A DNA stretch of 56,419 nucleotides from a virus (Duplodnaviria; Caudoviricetes): positions 1-56,419 of IMG/VR virus record IMGVR_UViG_3300028708_000002; one strand, 5' to 3'. Below the pieces are notes generated by a model. That model saw nothing but the letters and a program-made list of their open reading frames with translations. It had not been told where the DNA came from and made no database searches. Below are positions 3,173 through 49,600 of the stretch, one piece after another (position 1 is the stretch's first letter; each line of letters starts with the position of its first letter). Made by a program: the position numbers and the translations under genes.

Positions 3173-3475
3173 TCAGTTCCCTTCATTGCATTCCCCGGTC
3201 CCGAGGAGGGCGGGGCAGTGCTTGCGTAGGTGCGAGAGGAGCCTGTTGCTGTTGTCGATAGCCCGATCCAATCGGCCATCTCCATGGCGCGCCCAGCCAG
3301 CATCAGTGATCTCCCCGGCAAGCGAGATGGTGGGCACCCCTTTGCCATCACGTAGCAGGGTCATGGTTTCGGGCCGGATGAGCCAGGATGATGTTCCATC
3401 CTTCCCGCTTGCAAACCGGACCTCGACAAGCACCAGTCCGGCATCGGGTATCCGTAGCGCATCCTCATTGATCAC
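3173..3475 (-). CDS. Hypothetical protein
   Basis: AGGAG SD and GTG start. Confidence 0.6.
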   Translation of the reverse strand: MINEDALRIPDAGLVLVEVRFASGKDGTSSWLIRPETMTLLRDGKGVPTISLAGEITDAGWARHGDGRLDRAIDNSNRLLSHLRKHCPALLGTGECNEGN

Positions 3476-9526: not shown

Positions 9527-9902
9527 CGATGTTCCCTTCGCGCGGCACACCGTTGTCGATCATCTCGACAGCGAGGAGGCAGTGCCCGATGAGGTCCATC
9601 AGGATCTCGCGTTGGCCCTCTCGCGGGAGGTCAGCACCCTCCCACATCGCGCGCCGGAGCGGCCCGATCTTCCGCCAGATGTCTGCGAACTGCCCCATCG
9701 GTCCGAGCACGTGGTGGTTCCATCGTCCGTACTGCCGTGCGCCGAGGATGACGTTGTCGGCGACTTCGGCCAGGAGCTTGCTCAGGATGTACATATGCGC
9801 CGGGCCCACACTAGGGTCAGGGACCGGGCTGATTGGCGCTCCCTGTGGGCCTAGGGTGTGCTGCAGGCGCAACTCTGCAGTCACGTCGGCTGGGATGTTC
9901 AC
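9504..9902 (-). CDS. Nucleotide modification-associated domain 1 (Nmad1/DUF1599-like)
   Basis: YG...LGPMGQFADIWRK..L...E...EILMDLIGHCLL helical pattern; GAGGAGG SD plus GTG. Confidence 0.65.
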   Translation of the reverse strand: MNIPADVTAELRLQHTLGPQGAPISPVPDPSVGPAHMYILSKLLAEVADNVILGARQYGRWNHHVLGPMGQFADIWRKIGPLRRAMWEGADLPREGQREILMDLIGHCLLAVEMIDNGVPREGNIDAIGERG

Positions 9903-11593: not shown

Positions 11594-12400
11594 TTATGCC
11601 GCCACATACCTCGCAGCGACCTCGGCTGCCGTGTGCGCCAGGACTCCCTTGGTCCACGTCCCGTATCGCCCTACCCGGACGACGCTGGGGAAGCACACAC
11701 ACGTTGACTTGACTGGCTTCGTCACCAGCGCGACGTTGTTCAGGGGCGGCTTGGTCGCCATGGGCCACTCGCAAGTCTTGTACCCCTGAATGTTGCTGGC
11801 TCTGTACCATGATGGGTTCCCTTCTCCGTTGCATACCACGGTGTTCATCGGGACCTGAACCGGGCAGGTCACGCCGCGCTCCGGCGCATCGCCCACGGCC
11901 CAGACCGACTGCGATTGGAACTGGTGCGCCGCCCGGTCGATGCACAGATTCATTGCCGGGATCGAGGAGACGATCAGTGATCCAGTCTCCGTCAGGTGCT
12001 TGACCGCGATGTCATCGATGTGGCGTCGCTCCACGAGAGCCCCGTACCGGCTCCAGGCGTCATAGTACGCGCGCCGGATATCCCACGCCGGATGCGTCCC
12101 CACAAGGCTCTCCGGTGAGACCTCGATGTCTTCCCTCGGCCTCCCGTACACCTTGTCCTTGTAGGAGATCGCGGAGCCCTTCAGCTGGTAGTCGATCGTG
12201 AACGGATCGTCATCTCCATCCAGGCCAAGGATCGGAGCGTGGAGGTACTGCGCGCCAAACATCTCCGAGCGCCGGGCCTCCTTGCTGAATATGGAGACGC
12301 TCCAGCCGTGCCGGATGAACTCGTGCGCGGCGAACAGTCCGGCCGGGCCGCACCCGAGGACAACAGCCGTCGTGATCTTCTTGTGTCGGAATAGCTTCAC
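11594..12400 (-). CDS. FAD-dependent oxidoreductase (UDP-galactopyranose mutase/protoporphyrinogen oxidase-like fold)
   Basis: VLGCGPAGL Rossmann motif, GAQYLH and C-terminal VGRYGTW. Confidence 0.8.
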   Translation of the reverse strand: MKLFRHKKITTAVVLGCGPAGLFAAHEFIRHGWSVSIFSKEARRSEMFGAQYLHAPILGLDGDDDPFTIDYQLKGSAISYKDKVYGRPREDIEVSPESLVGTHPAWDIRRAYYDAWSRYGALVERRHIDDIAVKHLTETGSLIVSSIPAMNLCIDRAAHQFQSQSVWAVGDAPERGVTCPVQVPMNTVVCNGEGNPSWYRASNIQGYKTCEWPMATKPPLNNVALVTKPVKSTCVCFPSVVRVGRYGTWTKGVLAHTAAEVAARYVAA

Positions 12401-19338: not shown

Positions 19339-19369
19339 CTTCGTTCCCTTCTCTCGCCTATCACCGAGG

Positions 19370-20148: not shown

Positions 20149-20229
20149 CTCGGTTCCCTTCGTTGGAGGAAGACTCGCCATCTTCCCTTGCAACACCAAC
20201 GCTACTCCAACTGCAACGGGATGGCTACA
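20149..20229 (-). promoter_or_regulatory. Promoter TGTAGCCA-N12-TGGAGTAGCGTTG, leader hairpin and AAGGGAACCGAG RBS
   Basis: Motif identical to 23643-23675; its -35 overlaps a 15-bp inverted repeat (20214-20249). Confidence 0.7.
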
Positions 20230-20266
20230 TTTCCGCAGCCATCCCGTTGGTAAATATGAAGATTCT

Positions 20267-21220
20267 TTACGCCTCGATGTCTACCAGCACATTCTCTGAG
20301 GATCTAGTCTGCCCGCCCGTGAACGCCTTGCCCCGTCCCACAGCCACGAGGGCGGAGAGCCGGAACGCCCGGAAGCCAGTCCCAGCCTGGCAGCAGAACA
20401 GCACCACTCGCTCGCCCAGCTGCTCGGTGACGCGGACCGTCCTGGGGTCGCCCACCTTGGCCGTCTCCGTCCCGCCGCTCAGCCGGTTGTGCCACTTCAC
20501 CACATGCCCGGCAATCGCGTCCACCACAACCCGCTCCGGCGCGGTGGCGGGGTCGAACGGGAGGCGTACCACCTTGGGCATGACCTCCGCGTCCCTGCGG
20601 CGGAACGCCTTGTTGGTGGCGACCCTCGCCAACTCCTCGGCTGCCTCGGTCGGCTTGCGCTCCGCGAGCTTCAACGCCGCGCTGACATTCCGCGTCTGCA
20701 CCGTCCGGTCGCCCACCGTGTAGGTCGCTCCAGCGTTGACATACACGCCGCTGTCCCACGCCTGGTGGATCGCCTCGATGACGTCAGCGCCGCGCGTCGC
20801 CACAACCTCGGTCAGTTCACCCTCGGTCCGGTAATGCCCGATCCACCCTAGCGCCTCGATAGCCGTGCAGAACACCCGAGCCTTGGCCTCGCTCTTGGTT
20901 TCCGGTACTGTGGCCTCTCCGTTGGAGCTAGGGGCCTTAGCGGCAGTCTTCTGCACCGGCTCAGCCGGGCGGGTACGCGGCCTGGGACGCTCAGCCTCGG
21001 TCTTGTCGTGGAGCCGCAGCGCGTCCTGGAGCGCCTGCTTGCCCATCGTCCGTGCCTCCAGGACCTCCCGGCGCACGGCCTCGGCACGAAGCTCGGTGAG
21101 CCTCCAGTCGCCGTAGACATCAGCCGTCTCCACGATCGTGTTCGGCATCCGCTGTGCGGCTCGCTCGCGCTTGGCGTCCGCGACCCGCCGGAGCCCTCCC
21201 TTGCGTACTGTGGTCGTCAT
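20267..21220 (-). CDS. Hypothetical protein with Rho-N/HeH-like motif
   Basis: WRLTELRAEA......RTMGKQALQDAL; RBS AAGGGGACTGAG. Confidence 0.75.
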   Translation of the reverse strand: MTTTVRKGGLRRVADAKRERAAQRMPNTIVETADVYGDWRLTELRAEAVRREVLEARTMGKQALQDALRLHDKTEAERPRPRTRPAEPVQKTAAKAPSSNGEATVPETKSEAKARVFCTAIEALGWIGHYRTEGELTEVVATRGADVIEAIHQAWDSGVYVNAGATYTVGDRTVQTRNVSAALKLAERKPTEAAEELARVATNKAFRRRDAEVMPKVVRLPFDPATAPERVVVDAIAGHVVKWHNRLSGGTETAKVGDPRTVRVTEQLGERVVLFCCQAGTGFRAFRLSALVAVGRGKAFTGGQTRSSENVLVDIEA

Positions 21221-21673: not shown

Positions 21674-21726
21674 CTTCTTGTTCCCTTCTCTGGAGTTTCG
21701 TCCCGAGCTTACTCCTGGAGGCTGCA

Positions 21727-22774: not shown

Positions 22775-22866
22775 CTCGGTTCCCTTCTAAGAGCCCTCTC
22801 GCTGGGCTAGGACTGAGCGTCCTGGGCGAGGAGCGAGGCGCTGGGCCTCGCTCCCACCCGATGGGC

Positions 22867-23598: not shown

Positions 23599-23675
23599 TT
23601 CAGTTCCCTTCGTTTCGGGGCTCTCGCCGCCCCTTTCAAGGACAACGCTACTCCATCTTATTGCAATTGGCTACA
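23599..23675 (-). promoter_or_regulatory. Promoter TGTAGCCA-N12-TGGAGTAGCGTTG, GGCGAGA hairpin and AAGGGAACTGAA RBS
   Basis: Repeat of the 20149-20229 architecture. Confidence 0.7.
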
Positions 23676-24198: not shown

Positions 24199-24359
24199 CT
24201 CACGCCTCCCCGGATTTCGTACTTGGCTAGGCAGCGATCGCAATCGCACTCCACGACGCTCCCGTTAGCGTTAAGCGCGTTACCCTGCGCATCCATCCAC
24301 GGATAGGTCTTCTCTTCGGTCTCCGGGTTGGTTTCCGGCCGAGTCTCTTCGTGCTCCAT
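24195..24359 (-). CDS. Small protein (54 aa, CDCDRC; not in ORF track)
   Basis: AAGGGAATCAAG RBS; ATGA coupling. Confidence 0.65.
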   Translation of the reverse strand: MEHEETRPETNPETEEKTYPWMDAQGNALNANGSVVECDCDRCLAKYEIRGGVR

Positions 24360-24420
24360 CTTGATTCCCTTCTACGGGGAGGTCTCTCGCTCCTCCCTTT
24401 ACGACGCCAATCCTACTCCA
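24360..24420 (-). promoter_or_regulatory. Promoter (TGGAG-TAGGAT), GCGAGA hairpin and RBS
   Basis: Same leader architecture; hairpin at 24377-24397. Confidence 0.65.
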
Positions 24421-24481
24421 AGTTTTGACGGGAGGAAAGTCGAGAGCGTTGGATCTACCAGGGGTAACGAAGATTCTTTTG

Positions 24482-24524
24482 CAAAGAGAAGGGGACCGGT
24501 CGGGGCGAGAGTCCGACCGGTCCC
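24482..24524 (-). terminator. Intrinsic terminator at the end of the late operon/sRNA
   Basis: 12-bp stem GGGACCGGTCGG/CCGACCGGTCCC followed by CTTCTCTTT. Confidence 0.8.
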
Positions 24525-24606
24525 AGAGGAGTCCGCACGTCACGCGAGGAAGGGAACCGCAATCTCAAACGAGACGCTAAGCGTTGTCCTCCACCATCTT
24601 CTCCTG
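24482..24606 (-). ncRNA. Candidate trans-acting antisense small RNA
   Basis: Promoter TAGCCG-N18-TACTCT (24642-24613); terminator 24492-24524 with pyrimidine tail; CGGUUCCCUUC and loop CUCUCGCC complement the repeated leaders. Confidence 0.55.
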
Positions 24607-24639
24607 GTTACAAGAGTACGCCGTGCCAGAAAGTTGCGG

Positions 24640-24993
24640 CTAGCGCCTGGCGTAGGCCGGGCGTTTGTCGTTGACCAAGATGTCCTGCGCCGTGTCGGTC
24701 GCGCCGGTGGGCCTCCAGAGCCCGAAATGGACCGCCACTGCGAGGACGAAGTTCACGACCACGTTGTACGCCACCACCGTCCACACGAACGGAGCCCCGG
24801 CCTGGAGCGCCGCGACCCACGCCTGCAGGAACGTCGAGATGGCAGCGAAGAGCAGTAGCAGCACCGCTTTCATGGCCGCTGGCTGGGATCTTTTCGTGAT
24901 CAGCGACACCGCAAGTGGTAGCAGGACCGTGATCACGAGCGACAGGAGCCCGCCCAGGTCCGGCTGGAAGACATAGAACTCAGGTGCGTTCAT
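24640..24993 (-). CDS. Holin
   Basis: Three hydrophobic helices, directly after the endolysin. Confidence 0.8.
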   Translation of the reverse strand: MNAPEFYVFQPDLGGLLSLVITVLLPLAVSLITKRSQPAAMKAVLLLLFAAISTFLQAWVAALQAGAPFVWTVVAYNVVVNFVLAVAVHFGLWRPTGATDTAQDILVNDKRPAYARR

Positions 24994-24995
24994 CT

Positions 24996-25943
24996 TCAGA
25001 CCTCAGGCTTCGGGTAGACCGGAGGCTTGCCAAGAGCCTCCATGATTGCGTTCGCGTGCTCCCGCCCGTCGCGCCAGACCTCGCGGAGCGCGTTCTCAAG
25101 CGCGTACGTCGTGTTGGGCTTCGGCCCAAGGTAGTCCGCGTTGTTGATGGGCGGCTGCGGCACCGGCACCCGGTCGCACGTCAGCACAGACTTGCCGACT
25201 GCGGCCTGGAAAGCCTTGTCGGCCGTGAGCTTCTTGCACACCGCGTCCGCGATTGCCGTGATATCACTGGGCTTCACGTCATCTCCTTCCGTCATGTCGA
25301 GCAGCTGAGCCTTGGTCATCTTGGTAGCGTTGAGATCGACGTTGTTACCGATCCCTCCGGCGTCGCCCTTGGACGTGAACTGGAGGATCGCTGCCGTCTT
25401 CCACCCTCCGTAGTTCGGTGCCCACCATGCAGACGGGATGGTCGCCGCGAGGCTCGCGGGGTTGTCGGCGACGGTGTTGGTGTCGGGCTGCTTCATGTAA
25501 TGCGAGTCCCAGAGGTACGGCGTCACGGCTCCGCCGTCCCACTTCCGCCCCGGTGCGTCCCACCACCACTTGCCCGTGTAGATAGCGAACGGGTGGGCGT
25601 CCGTCCTCGACTCCCAGCGAGCCGCCCACGCCTTCACGTCCGCGTAGGTCGCGGTGTCCTCGCAGTCCAGCTGGATCAGCAGACCGTTCGGGCCGCCCAC
25701 CTTCTCCAGGTTCTTGAGGAACCAGTCGCACTGCGCCGCGCCGGAGCCCTTCTCAATCCAGTGATACGCGCCGGGAATCATCCCGGCCTTGCGGATACGA
25801 CCGATCCACTCCGCAAACCCTGTGGCGTAGAAGGAGGTCCCCTGGGTGCACTTCACGACCGCGAAGGTGTACCCCTGCTTGGGCAGATCCTCGATCTTCA
25901 GGCCCTTCTGGTACTGCGGATGGACATCGACTCCGTATAGCAT
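24996..25943 (-). CDS. Endolysin, GH25 muramidase
   Basis: GVDV..YQ, VKCTQG, GAYH, LDCE, IYTG, QFTS and VDLN motifs. Confidence 0.9.
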   Translation of the reverse strand: MLYGVDVHPQYQKGLKIEDLPKQGYTFAVVKCTQGTSFYATGFAEWIGRIRKAGMIPGAYHWIEKGSGAAQCDWFLKNLEKVGGPNGLLIQLDCEDTATYADVKAWAARWESRTDAHPFAIYTGKWWWDAPGRKWDGGAVTPYLWDSHYMKQPDTNTVADNPASLAATIPSAWWAPNYGGWKTAAILQFTSKGDAGGIGNNVDLNATKMTKAQLLDMTEGDDVKPSDITAIADAVCKKLTADKAFQAAVGKSVLTCDRVPVPQPPINNADYLGPKPNTTYALENALREVWRDGREHANAIMEALGKPPVYPKPEV

Positions 25944-46415: not shown

Positions 46416-47049
46416 TGGGCTCCTCGGTGTCGGCGTACTCACCCTCAAAGAGCTTGCGGAGCCCTTCCTGCCATCCAGGCATCGAGACGTCAACCTCAAA
46501 GCCGCCCTTGATACCCGCCCGGTCTAGCAGGCTGTTGCACGCCGCAATCACGTCCTTCTCCGGCGTCATGGGGTTGAAGGCTATGGCCAGCAGCCGGGCC
46601 GCTACGGCGTCGCTCGCTCCGGCGATCCGCATACGCGCGGCCTGCCGTACCGCTGGGTTGTAACCGCCATGCGTGACGCAGACCTCGGCTCCGGGGATCG
46701 AGGCGCGGAGGCAGGGGCGGGTGAGAGCGTCGTTGTCCGCGTCGACCACATAGCGCCCCTCCTTGTCGCGGAGGTAGCTCCGGGCCTTACAGGGGTTTGC
46801 CATCCTGGAGACGAACTCGCCTGCCTCGTCCAGGTCCTCCTGCAGCCCGTTCCAGCGCCACTGCGCGCCGAACGGTACGTTGGTCTCTTCGTCGCCGATG
46901 CGCTCGATGTCTTCCCAGTGCGCCATCAGCCATTCGAGGTCTGCCTTGGTATTGCCGCGAGAGGCCGTGGGGACCTTGACATCTGTCCGCCCATCGTCCC
47001 CTCGCGGCATACCGCGCTTGGTGCTTACGCCCTTCTGTCCACCTGCCAT
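46396..47049 (-). CDS. terS: Terminase small subunit
   Basis: C....I.G..VC..HGG and LLDRAG; upstream of terL. Confidence 0.7.
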   Translation of the reverse strand: MAGGQKGVSTKRGMPRGDDGRTDVKVPTASRGNTKADLEWLMAHWEDIERIGDEETNVPFGAQWRWNGLQEDLDEAGEFVSRMANPCKARSYLRDKEGRYVVDADNDALTRPCLRASIPGAEVCVTHGGYNPAVRQAARMRIAGASDAVAARLLAIAFNPMTPEKDVIAACNSLLDRAGIKGGFEVDVSMPGWQEGLRKLFEGEYADTEEPNAQGPS

Positions 47050-47062
47050 GAGGAGGAGTGTA
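47050..47062 (-). promoter_or_regulatory. -10 box TACACT 7 nt before the terS ATG (leaderless start)
   Basis: TACACT-CCTCCTC-ATG with no SD. Confidence 0.5.
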
Positions 47063-47067
47063 GCTGG

Positions 47068-47478
47068 CTACTCCCAGATCTCCGTGTCGTACCACGCCAT
47101 CCAGCCATCGTCGGCCCGGACGATCCCCATAACATGGAGGAGCGCGAACAGTCGGTGCTGGCTGATGTGGGCGCTCTCAAACAGCACCGTCTCGGGCACC
47201 GGCGTCTCGTTAGCCTCTTCCAGGTCCTCGCCCATAACCAGTGCAACTCGCACGCTGACCCAGTTGCCGAGGTCGCGCACCGTCACGTGCGTCTCGCGGT
47301 CCGAGGCCTGGTACACGAACTCGCGGTCATCCCGCAGAACGTCGTCAATCTCCAGGCGCTGTTGGTGTTTATCCGCCCAGCCCGACGACAGGAGCTTGGC
47401 CCACAAGGCTTCCATCTCCGGCGTCTTGAGGATCGGGGTGAACGGGTCCGGCGCGCCGGACGTGCCGTGTACGGTCAT
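47068..47478 (-). CDS. Hypothetical protein
   Basis: TGATG coupling. Confidence 0.7.
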   Translation of the reverse strand: MTVHGTSGAPDPFTPILKTPEMEALWAKLLSSGWADKHQQRLEIDDVLRDDREFVYQASDRETHVTVRDLGNWVSVRVALVMGEDLEEANETPVPETVLFESAHISQHRLFALLHVMGIVRADDGWMAWYDTEIWE

Positions 47479-48455: not shown

Positions 48456-48566
48456 TGGGGAGTGAGATTTTGTTGCGGCTTGGATCCTGTGAGGAGGAGT
48501 GGCTACCGCATCCAGTCTCCCATCGTCGGCCCTGTGCCTGACGGTACGCCCAAGGAGGCCGTGCCG

Positions 48567-49469: not shown

Positions 49470-49600
49470 CCCGTTTCCCTTCCTCGGAAGCGCCTAGCCT
49501 CGCGCGTCCGGAGGCGCTGCCGCTAGCCAGCAGCTGTCCGACTGGCCTCAACATAGTGGTGAACGCCTTACAGACGATGGCGACCGAGACGTTGTCGTTG

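Follow-up and report, generated by a model that had tools for sequence, protein, structure and literature searches.

We analyzed a DNA window of 56,419 nt that is a complete virus record (IMG/VR record IMGVR_UViG_3300028708_000002; rated 86% complete, 64% GC) and found a structured, non-coding RNA element on its gene (minus) strand at 24605-24484, directly after the holin gene that ends the late operon. This element is genuine: it is structured, departs from chance, and is strongly constrained. Its predicted fold displays two apical loops; one contains the exact antisense of an extended ribosome-binding site (RBS) motif placed before early genes, and the other is antisense to a second motif, GCGAGAG, in the leaders of such genes. 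Judging from the sequence, we give a probability of about 0.5 to the reading that the element encodes an antisense regulator that forms part of the late transcript, may be made separately as well, and would occlude the tagged early RBSs. Such a regulator is a variant, so far undescribed, of the known antisense and anti-Shine-Dalgarno (anti-SD) RNAs. A preliminary description of the locus had proposed a multi-target antisense RNA of this kind; all of its sequence statements were reproduced, positions included, and its interpretation was partly supported.

Parts and fold of the element

The gene strand of the element was predicted to fold as a three-way junction with an energy of -57.3 kcal/mol and a z-score of -3.25, and none of 200 shuffled sequences folded as well; the opposite strand folded slightly worse (-53.6 kcal/mol). 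The fold was retained when the holin sequence upstream or the next leader downstream was added. Three stems (P1, P2, and P3) were distinguished, and the parts are given below with positions of the window; L numbers denote related contigs or loci, MFE stands for minimum free energy, and ORF for open reading frame.

24637-24642, minus strand: -35-like TAGCCG; overlaps the holin stop TAG and is kept as TAGCCG or TAGGCG in L115-L119 and L137
24613-24618, minus strand: -10-like TACTCT, which fits TANNNT; 18 nt after TAGCCG, with the first paired RNA base 7 nt downstream
24598-24605, minus strand: 5' strand of P1, AGGAGAAG; pairs with the post-terminator tail in the MFE and centroid folds
24577-24597, minus strand: mini-ORF MVEDNA; not conserved, with the stop TAG changed to CAG in L116, L117, L118, and L003
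24525-24592, minus strand: P2, a long interrupted stem bearing the apical loop in the predicted fold
24549-24563, minus strand: 15-nt apical loop AUUGCGGUUCCCUUC; unpaired probability ~0.5-0.9
24492-24524, minus strand: P3, the terminator hairpin with a 12-bp stem and the 9-nt loop ACUCUCGCC (24504-24512), antisense to the leader sequence GGCGAGAG
24484-24491, minus strand: tail CUUCUCUU; terminator U/C tract and 3' strand of P1
24467-24477, no strand assigned: near-palindrome AAAGAATCTTC ending the conserved block; second copy at 20258-20268

The P3 hairpin had an energy of -26.4 kcal/mol and was followed by the tail CUUCUCUUU, so that stem, loop, and tail were all present as described earlier. 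A consensus terminator scan did not list P3; the P3 loop has 9 nt, and the loop limit of the scan was 8. Because the element lies on the coding strand between the stop codon of the last late gene (24640) and the terminator (24524-24492), the late-operon transcript must also carry this RNA at its 3' end, as had been proposed. Read from its position in the DNA, the element would necessarily be the 3' trailer of the late structural/lysis operon.

The TAGCCG-N18-TACTCT sequence that had been reported after the holin stop was present (24642-24637 and 24618-24613), and the element may also be made as a discrete RNA from this TANNNT promoter of its own. The pattern TAGCC-N17-19-TANNNT was found five times in the window against 0.63 expected, and none of 100 shuffles reached five. 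Its three minus-strand occurrences are that of the element itself and two upstream of early genes, at 20199-20227 and 23645-23673. At the place of TACTCT, TAGCGT is present in L119 and TACCGT in L137. The near-palindrome of the AAAGAATCTTC type is a candidate operator or promoter-associated site; its second copy sits at the stop of gene 20267-21220, and AAGAATCTT or its inverse AAGATTCTT was observed in the holin-downstream gaps of three relatives (L122, L125, and L133).

Complementarity of the two loops to the early-gene leaders

The 15-nt apical loop contains CGGUUCCCUUC (24549-24559), the exact antisense of the early RBS motif GAAGGGAACCG. The window contains exactly three copies of this motif: two immediately precede an ATG on the minus strand (20151 and 22777), and the third is the plus-strand copy at 24549-24559. 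With up to two mismatches, 31 matches were present against 19.7 expected, a number that none of 100 shuffles reached. Copies with one mismatch, which gives a G-U pair on pairing, were located at 23601 and 3174, and 9-nt copies at 24362, 21678, 19341, and 9529, while the copy at 49472 matches 14 of 15 nt. A GAAGGGAAC(C/T)G-like motif directly precedes the ATG of ten non-structural genes, with starts at 24359, 23598, 22774, 21673, 21220, 20148, 19338, 9526, 3171, and 49469. The gap between motif and ATG is 2 nt in nine of the ten start-associated copies, and all ten starts are ATG. The motif was found before none of the late genes, which have ordinary Shine-Dalgarno (SD) sequences (GGAGG, AAGGAGG, or GGGAGG).

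The terminator loop carries an 8-nt antisense to GGCGAGAG. GCGAGAG is found in the plus strand (24505-24511) and, in the minus strand, immediately 5' to the RBS (19351, 21238, 22796, 23621, and 24384); it is not enriched genome-wide (22 copies against 20.9 expected), and its copies cluster in leaders. Both antisense modules fall in predicted single-stranded apical loops, and the order of the two loop elements is antiparallel to that in the leaders, as stated in the preliminary description. Two leaders additionally share GGAGTAGCGTTG and TAGCC-N17-18-TAGCGT. The candidate targets, all on the minus strand, are as follows.

24362-24390, minus strand: leader of gene 24359; hairpin loop AGCGAGAGA and RBS GAAGGGAAU
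23601-23627, minus strand: leader of gene 23598; loop GGCGAGA and RBS GAAGGGAACUG
22777-22802, minus strand: leader of gene 22774; loop AGCGAGA and exact RBS motif
20151-20161, minus strand: leader of gene 20148; exact RBS motif, the top-ranked predicted site for the loop
21223-21244, minus strand: leader of gene 21220; GGCGAGAG and variant RBS GAAGGGGAC
19341-19357, minus strand: leader of the SNF2 helicase gene 19338; 9-nt RBS match
21678-21688, minus strand: RBS motif of gene 21673; 9-nt match
9529-9539, minus strand: RBS motif of the UDG-family gene 9526; 9-nt match
3174-3184, minus strand: RBS motif of gene 3171; one mismatch
49472-49482, minus strand: RBS motif of gene 49469; 14 of 15 nt matched when the flank is included

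To quantify these matches, 70 start regions were used, one of which (11811) is probably not real. We found that GTTCCCTTC at 24557 is the only gene-sense 9-mer in the 56-kb genome that is complementary to at least four of the 70 start regions, and it matches eight. The matches of both loops, to the RBS motif and to GCGAGAG, were beyond chance. When the 15-nt loop was scanned for duplexes across the genome, early-gene start regions took ranks 1, 3, 10, 11, and 14 of the top 14. The loop reached seven start regions at -17 kcal/mol or below, and 3 of 400 loop shuffles reached at least seven. However, 37 of 600 random genomic 15-mers did as well, and a longer query gave no enrichment. Because of these two results, the case rests on exact contiguous complementarity and placement and not on energy ranking. 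Folding did not predict that, on a read-through RNA, the loop pairs in cis with the gene 24359 RBS.

Two further observations concern the leaders. A one-mismatch motif with ATG is present at 11814-11824 within the ORF 11594-12400; the out-of-frame 99-codon ORF behind it has a GC content at third codon positions (GC3) of only 0.64, so this copy was discounted as a start region and is probably not a gene start, although it is one of the 70 used above. When the region 24354-23829 was compared with L005, a mosaic breakpoint was seen exactly after the ATG of gene 24359, where promoter, leader, and RBS are shared but the gene that follows them differs; the leaders are thus recombination-portable cassettes.

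Conservation of the element in related phages

The holin alignment retrieved 80 metagenome, 2 genome, and 7 viral loci. The close relative L003/L005 (96-98% identical) carries the same element with a single change, T to C at 24579, which removes the mini-ORF stop. Upon comparison of L117 and L118 with the window, the nucleotide identity was 85.7% in the holin ORF, 88.9% in the spacer from the holin stop to the -10-like sequence, and 90-91% from the terminator to the next ATG, while the 125-nt RNA body was 99.2% identical, with its single change in an internal loop. At the rate of the flanks, the probability of at most one change in 125 nt is ~3e-5 by a binomial estimate. Selection or a module-sized exchange could cause this identity, and both point to a functional unit.

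In the more distant L119 and L137 (holin 58% and 49% identical), the bodies could not be aligned with that of the window, and separate folds revealed the same layout: TANNNT, 7 nt, a stem closing the 5' end with the post-terminator tail, a long stem, and the terminator. Their long stems bear CU-rich loops of 11-12 nt (UUCUCCUUUCUC or UUUUCCUUCUC), and their terminators bear a 10-nt loop (AACCUCUCAC). The folds had energies of -72.6 and -72.9 kcal/mol and z-scores of -5.90 and -4.74 for L119 and L137, respectively; compensatory changes were present in the stems between the two, and the gene strand folded better than the opposite strand in all three cases, the window included. An alignment of the window type with L119 and L137 by MAFFT and RNAalifold was poor. 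A covariance model (R1) built from L119 and L137, the consensus of which missed the apical hairpin, did not match the window element either, so the shared architecture rests on the separate MFE folds. In Micromonosporaceae genomes, R1 matched 1 of 151, an ordinary host terminator, and it matched neither of two Actinoplanes genomes. A search of viral contigs with the pattern GAAGGGAACYGARATG gave 109 stretches; among the 80 listed, more than one match was found only in a near-identical relative, and the rest look like chance.

Relatives with ~50% holin identity have SAS/ESAS-like early leaders of their own (L122 3500-4600, L125 3500-4160, L134 3460-5130, and L140 3450-4400; the terms are those of Cluster K, described below). 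These leaders show a hairpin loop UGAAGUU on covarying stems, followed by ACAAGGGGA before the ATG.

A comparable inverted motif in Cluster K mycobacteriophages

According to passages of two papers (PMC3203893, PMC11373665), the start-associated sequences (SASs) of Cluster K are asymmetric 11-13-nt motifs that extend beyond the SD, lie a few nt before the ATG of non-structural genes, and keep one orientation; a subset has an upstream promoter and an inverted repeat, and a single inverted copy lies away from gene starts. In a passage of PMC3203893 the binding partner of the SAS was left open as 'RNA or protein', and DNA-binding proteins were favored for the repeats of the extended SAS (ESAS). 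The motifs and their single inverted copy were described in 2011 (PMC3203893); in the relevant passages of the 2024-2025 papers they are unexplained, and the role of the SAS is still called unknown (PMC11373665, PMC12699233). In the full-text literature, no paper was found that proposes an antisense RNA for the SAS or a late-transcript anti-RBS RNA in phages, with subscription journals (e.g., the ZoeJ study) outside this scope. The words 'orientation' and 'RNA' were absent from the 2025 survey of 188 Cluster K genomes.

The motif of the window resembles the Cluster K SAS/ESAS in its arrangement. Both are asymmetric, lie 2-9 nt before the ATG of non-structural genes only, keep one orientation, show an upstream promoter and an inverted repeat at a subset of copies, and have a single inverted copy off the gene starts (24549-24559 here; one each in Anaya and Adephagia). 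However, GAAGGGAACCG does not fit the Cluster K consensus GGGATAGGAGCCC, and the inverted copy belongs to the leader of the late transcript in K1, whereas it belongs to the trailer in the window.

The inverted SAS of Anaya is located at record positions 59870-59882, in the non-coding gap between gp96 and gp97. There, on the transcribed strand, it is the apical loop (10 nt, CCUCCUAUCC) of a hairpin with a z-score of -4.29 (L205 34850-34905; record 59849-59904). This hairpin region is present in 133 Cluster K records, nine of which were sampled. The two-hairpin structure was kept in all nine, with 96.8% of cells paired and five pairs changed on both sides, and none of 500 shuffles reached its covariation score; the G-U pairs fit the plus strand. 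Six of the nine, among them Amelie (76.6% identity), kept the sequence CCUCCUAUCCC. The inverted SAS of Adephagia was located between genes 92 and 93 (L214 2160-2215), a gap in which late transcription initiates, as stated in a passage of PMC11373665.

Two annotations near these hairpins were also observed. The gene directly upstream of the anti-SAS hairpin region in Nanz197 is annotated as an RNA-directed DNA polymerase (L208, record 59999-61336). In Amgine, as in several other records, the conserved two-hairpin non-coding element is annotated as part of a protein-coding gene (gp95; L211 75-420), which is likely an over-annotation.

Proposed mechanism and its weighing

The analysis shows the complementarity, the placement of the loops in the predicted folds, the uniqueness in the genome, the strong purifying conservation, and the recurring architecture; the transcript ends, pairing in vivo, repression as the direction of control, and its timing are inferred. 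A structured RNA of ~120-140 nt, which the gene strand encodes in the interval from the holin stop to the first early-gene promoter, would arise as the 3' trailer of the late operon and perhaps also from its own TANNNT promoter. Its 5' end would pair with the post-terminator tail, the long stem would display the 15-nt loop, and the terminator hairpin the 9-nt loop. The two loops would read two conserved parts of the leaders, namely the SAS-like extended RBS GAAGGGAACCG, 2 nt before the ATG, and GCGAGAG just upstream. Loop-loop contact together with pairing across the SD region would block ribosomes on ~10 early/replication mRNAs, and rising late transcription would then shut early translation down.

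If this is true, the switch from early to late would be timed by one small RNA module that reads a tag common to the early messages, a compact and programmable multi-target translational switch, and anti-SD-type loops on late-operon ends would recur in soil actinophages. Only tentatively do we extend the reading to SAS-type motifs at large: these may be address labels, with an exact-antisense hairpin loop on the late transcript, in its trailer in the window phage and in its leader in Cluster K1, silencing the whole early regulon by RBS occlusion. If this holds, both the SAS motifs and their single inverted copy would for the first time be explained in functional terms, and the 15-year-old question on the purpose of start-associated sequences would open to direct experiment.

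Several results weigh against the antisense regulator. Three of them concern parts of the RNA as first described. A third module, formed by the 3' arm and tail of the terminator, does show the described 13-nt match to the 21220 leader, but it fails in a close relative, where two changes in this leader remove two pairs without compensation, and the arm is buried in the terminator stem. The mini-ORF MVEDNA exists (24597-24577), but its stop is lost in three of four related contigs, the variable base 24579 being in an internal loop. In L119 and L137, the -35/-10-like bases can form a hairpin of their own when upstream sequence is added, which competes with the promoter reading. Beside these, the 10-nt promoter match of GGACAACGCU and AGCGTTGTCC was also present as reported, but it is at chance level by estimate, lies in a paired region, and concerns target bases mostly upstream of the likely transcription start. 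The hairpin just mentioned has 10 bp and spans the holin stop and the promoter-like bases (L119 2180-2225, L137 2488-2533); it could be a processing site or an alternative to the promoter.

On the side of the targets, GCGAGAG is the apical loop of a 5-6-bp hairpin in only three of seven leaders folded, with a related loop in a fourth, and the leader hairpins are weak (z-scores of -0.2 to -1.7), none being individually significant. The 37 of 600 random 15-mers make the energy ranking moderate, and the unconstrained duplex energies with the 29-nt query showed no target enrichment, a query judged uninformative because the genome has 64% GC. The RNA is identical in all relatives with this type of leader, and the short contigs L119 and L137 do not reach their leaders. 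In favor of the regulator, RNA-library contigs from two studies extend across the holin stop into the element (X20, 24531-24899; X22, 24554-24704), but they carry no strand information and could be DNA. None of four RNA-library runs covers 24392-24530, which is uninformative because coverage was patchy everywhere.

The wider comparison adds further points of this kind. R1 gave 13 matches at E<=10 in 27 sources, none of which was the window element. In relatives at ~40-55% holin identity, the terminator is the only part seen, 10-20 nt beyond the stop; these terminators comprised six different stems, with compensatory changes in 8 of 13 pairs, and all had a CCUCCUC loop. The constancy of this loop on changing stems, by contrast, was counted in favor of the regulator. 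Nine loci from the ~50%-holin relatives contained no inverted counterpart of the RBS that these relatives use (CAAGGGGA). Three Amginevirus phages carry other CU-rich loops (GCUUCCCUUCCCU in Amgine), and the SAS of Amgine is unchanged despite its differing loop, with 18 sites, all on the plus strand.

Comparison with known regulators

T4 RegA and RegB are phage proteins that act at the SD/start region of many early messages and end their translation. The effector proposed for the window phage is an RNA and would, if real, be an RNA counterpart of these proteins. The c4 RNA of P1/P7 and the CI RNA of P4 have two short exposed segments that pair with two separated target sites of the same phage, one of them over an RBS. 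Each of these RNAs derives from the very transcription unit it helps to control, and they control one operon for immunity in temperate phages. The window RNA is similar in that two segments, single-stranded in the predicted fold, are complementary to the RBS motif and to GCGAGAG in antiparallel order. It differs in that ~10 dispersed early leaders would be its targets and in its position at the 3' end of the late operon. Rfam gave no matches at the gathering score, and no match to RF01695, the P1/P7 c4 antisense RNA (PMC2864571), was found at E<=10 over 24300-24700.

The alpha-proteobacterial small RNAs of the ar14/NfeR1 type have ultraconserved unpaired CU-rich anti-SD motifs on differing stems and occlude the RBS on several mRNAs, as described in a passage of PMC10746234. 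The ar14 family (RF02344) scored 19.1 bits with the element (E 0.17), below its gathering score of 58.8. Like ar14, the terminators of the relatives keep their CCUCCUC loops constant while the stems differ. However, the ar14 loop motif CCUCCUCCC is found neither in the window loops AUUGCGGUUCCCUUC and ACUCUCGCC nor in the CCUCCUC terminators, and ar14 displays one generic motif three times in another phylum, whereas the window element is phage-encoded and has two different loops for two leader elements. The element would thus work like c4, P4 CI, and anti-SD small RNAs such as NfeR1 by analogy, and it is not a member of their families.

Alternative explanations

The rival that survives best, which we nevertheless regard as unlikely, is a generic 3' terminator or stabilizer of the late operon, the CU-rich loops of which are general anti-SD or protein-binding sites and not dedicated to the early regulon. 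Such an element could act in cis, or more broadly on any SD, and might, for instance, dampen translation or shield the end of the mRNA. This reading agrees with the ~50%-holin relatives, where only the CCUCCUC-loop terminator is present and pairs with early start regions no better than with late ones; with the CU-rich loops of L199/L200 and of the Amginevirus phages, which do not match the RBS motif of their own phage; and with the weak resemblance to ar14. However, a general anti-SD need not match the five non-SD bases AACCG, the GCGAGAG match of the second loop is left unexplained, and the GGAGG SDs of the late genes are poorly matched by the loop.

We consider it distinctly improbable that GAAGGGAACCG and GCGAGAG are instead sites in the DNA, bound as duplex by a phage regulator in the manner of stoperators or ESAS repeats, with the pair after the holin as an operator at the late/early boundary. 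The plus strand does read the hairpin GGCGAGAG and then GAAGGGAACCG, colinear with a leader, and other common DNA motifs, AAAGAATCTTC and TAGCC-N18-TANNNT, cluster here; the preference for DNA-binding proteins at ESAS repeats in the passage of PMC3203893 cited above also favors such sites. Against them, the 2-nt gap and the ATG starts point to translation, and the two elements are 37 nt apart here but 0-16 nt apart in the leaders. Both fall exactly in apical loops, the stems of which are conserved here and, in the analogues from Cluster K and from the ~50%-holin relatives, have changed in a compensatory way, and the whole 125 nt is conserved, not two sites alone.

That the locus is a plus-strand leader copy, the same sequence read on the other strand, is disfavored. 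As a relic, it would be an inverted degenerate copy of an early leader, its start codon decayed to ATC, and functionless beyond the terminator. ATC does stand on the plus strand 2 nt after the motif, exactly at the position of the ATG in a leader, and a 22-nt inverted repeat with the 22774 leader is 77% identical. We rate such a relic as very improbable in view of the 99.2% identity over 125 nt against 86-91% in the flanks, the persistence of the architecture in L119 and L137, whose loops differ and which lack a start codon, and a stem of 12 bp compared with 4-6 bp in the leaders.

A product of the plus strand opposite the holin, either an antisense RNA or an ATC-initiated ORF of 99 codons (24562-24858) driven by the leader-like RBS, is hardly credible in spite of the perfect motif, the 2-nt spacing, and the open frame, as the ORF failed the GC3 filter and has no coding signature (its third positions coincide with holin first positions, hence no GC3 signal), the promoter scan found none on the plus strand, TAAGCGT is changed to TGAGCGT in relatives, L119 and L137 have no start codon there, and every other gene is on the minus strand.

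The phage and minor observations

All credible ORFs are on the minus strand of the window. In the gene direction, terminase, portal, tail, and lysis genes follow each other and end at the holin; after a gap of 280 nt come the non-structural genes, which include a Rho_N/SAP-domain protein, DUF2786, SNF2 helicase, UDG, a PD-(D/E)XK nuclease, PHP and Pol III alpha domains, and a primase/D5 helicase. The two lysis genes next to the element are as follows.

24640-24993, minus strand: holin gene (phrog_8269, E 6.1e-16); stop TAG at 24642-24640
24996-25943, minus strand: GH25 endolysin gene (PF01183, E 3.1e-19); precedes the holin

The phage is a soil actinophage, and its host is probably a member of the Micromonosporaceae, because relatives of the holin are present in Micromonospora and Actinoplanes records. 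ARAGORN revealed no tRNAs in the window. A near DNA search of the phage collection gave no relative, and a distant search gave nine records with short coding matches only, none of them informative. The locus L004, with an endolysin 48% identical, was rejected as a relative; it belongs to an unrelated phage of 42% GC.

Two copies of GTAGCC, each followed within a few bases by ACTCCTCCTCA, were also seen on the minus strand, at 47050-47070 and 48490-48510. The latter lies in a 300-nt non-coding gap near 48.4 kb that may hold the late promoter, with its CU stretch partly paired in the fold; the CUCCUCCU stretch at 48499 was not in a clean loop when folded. The copy at 47050-47070 immediately precedes the ATG at 47049 and occupies the position expected of an SD.

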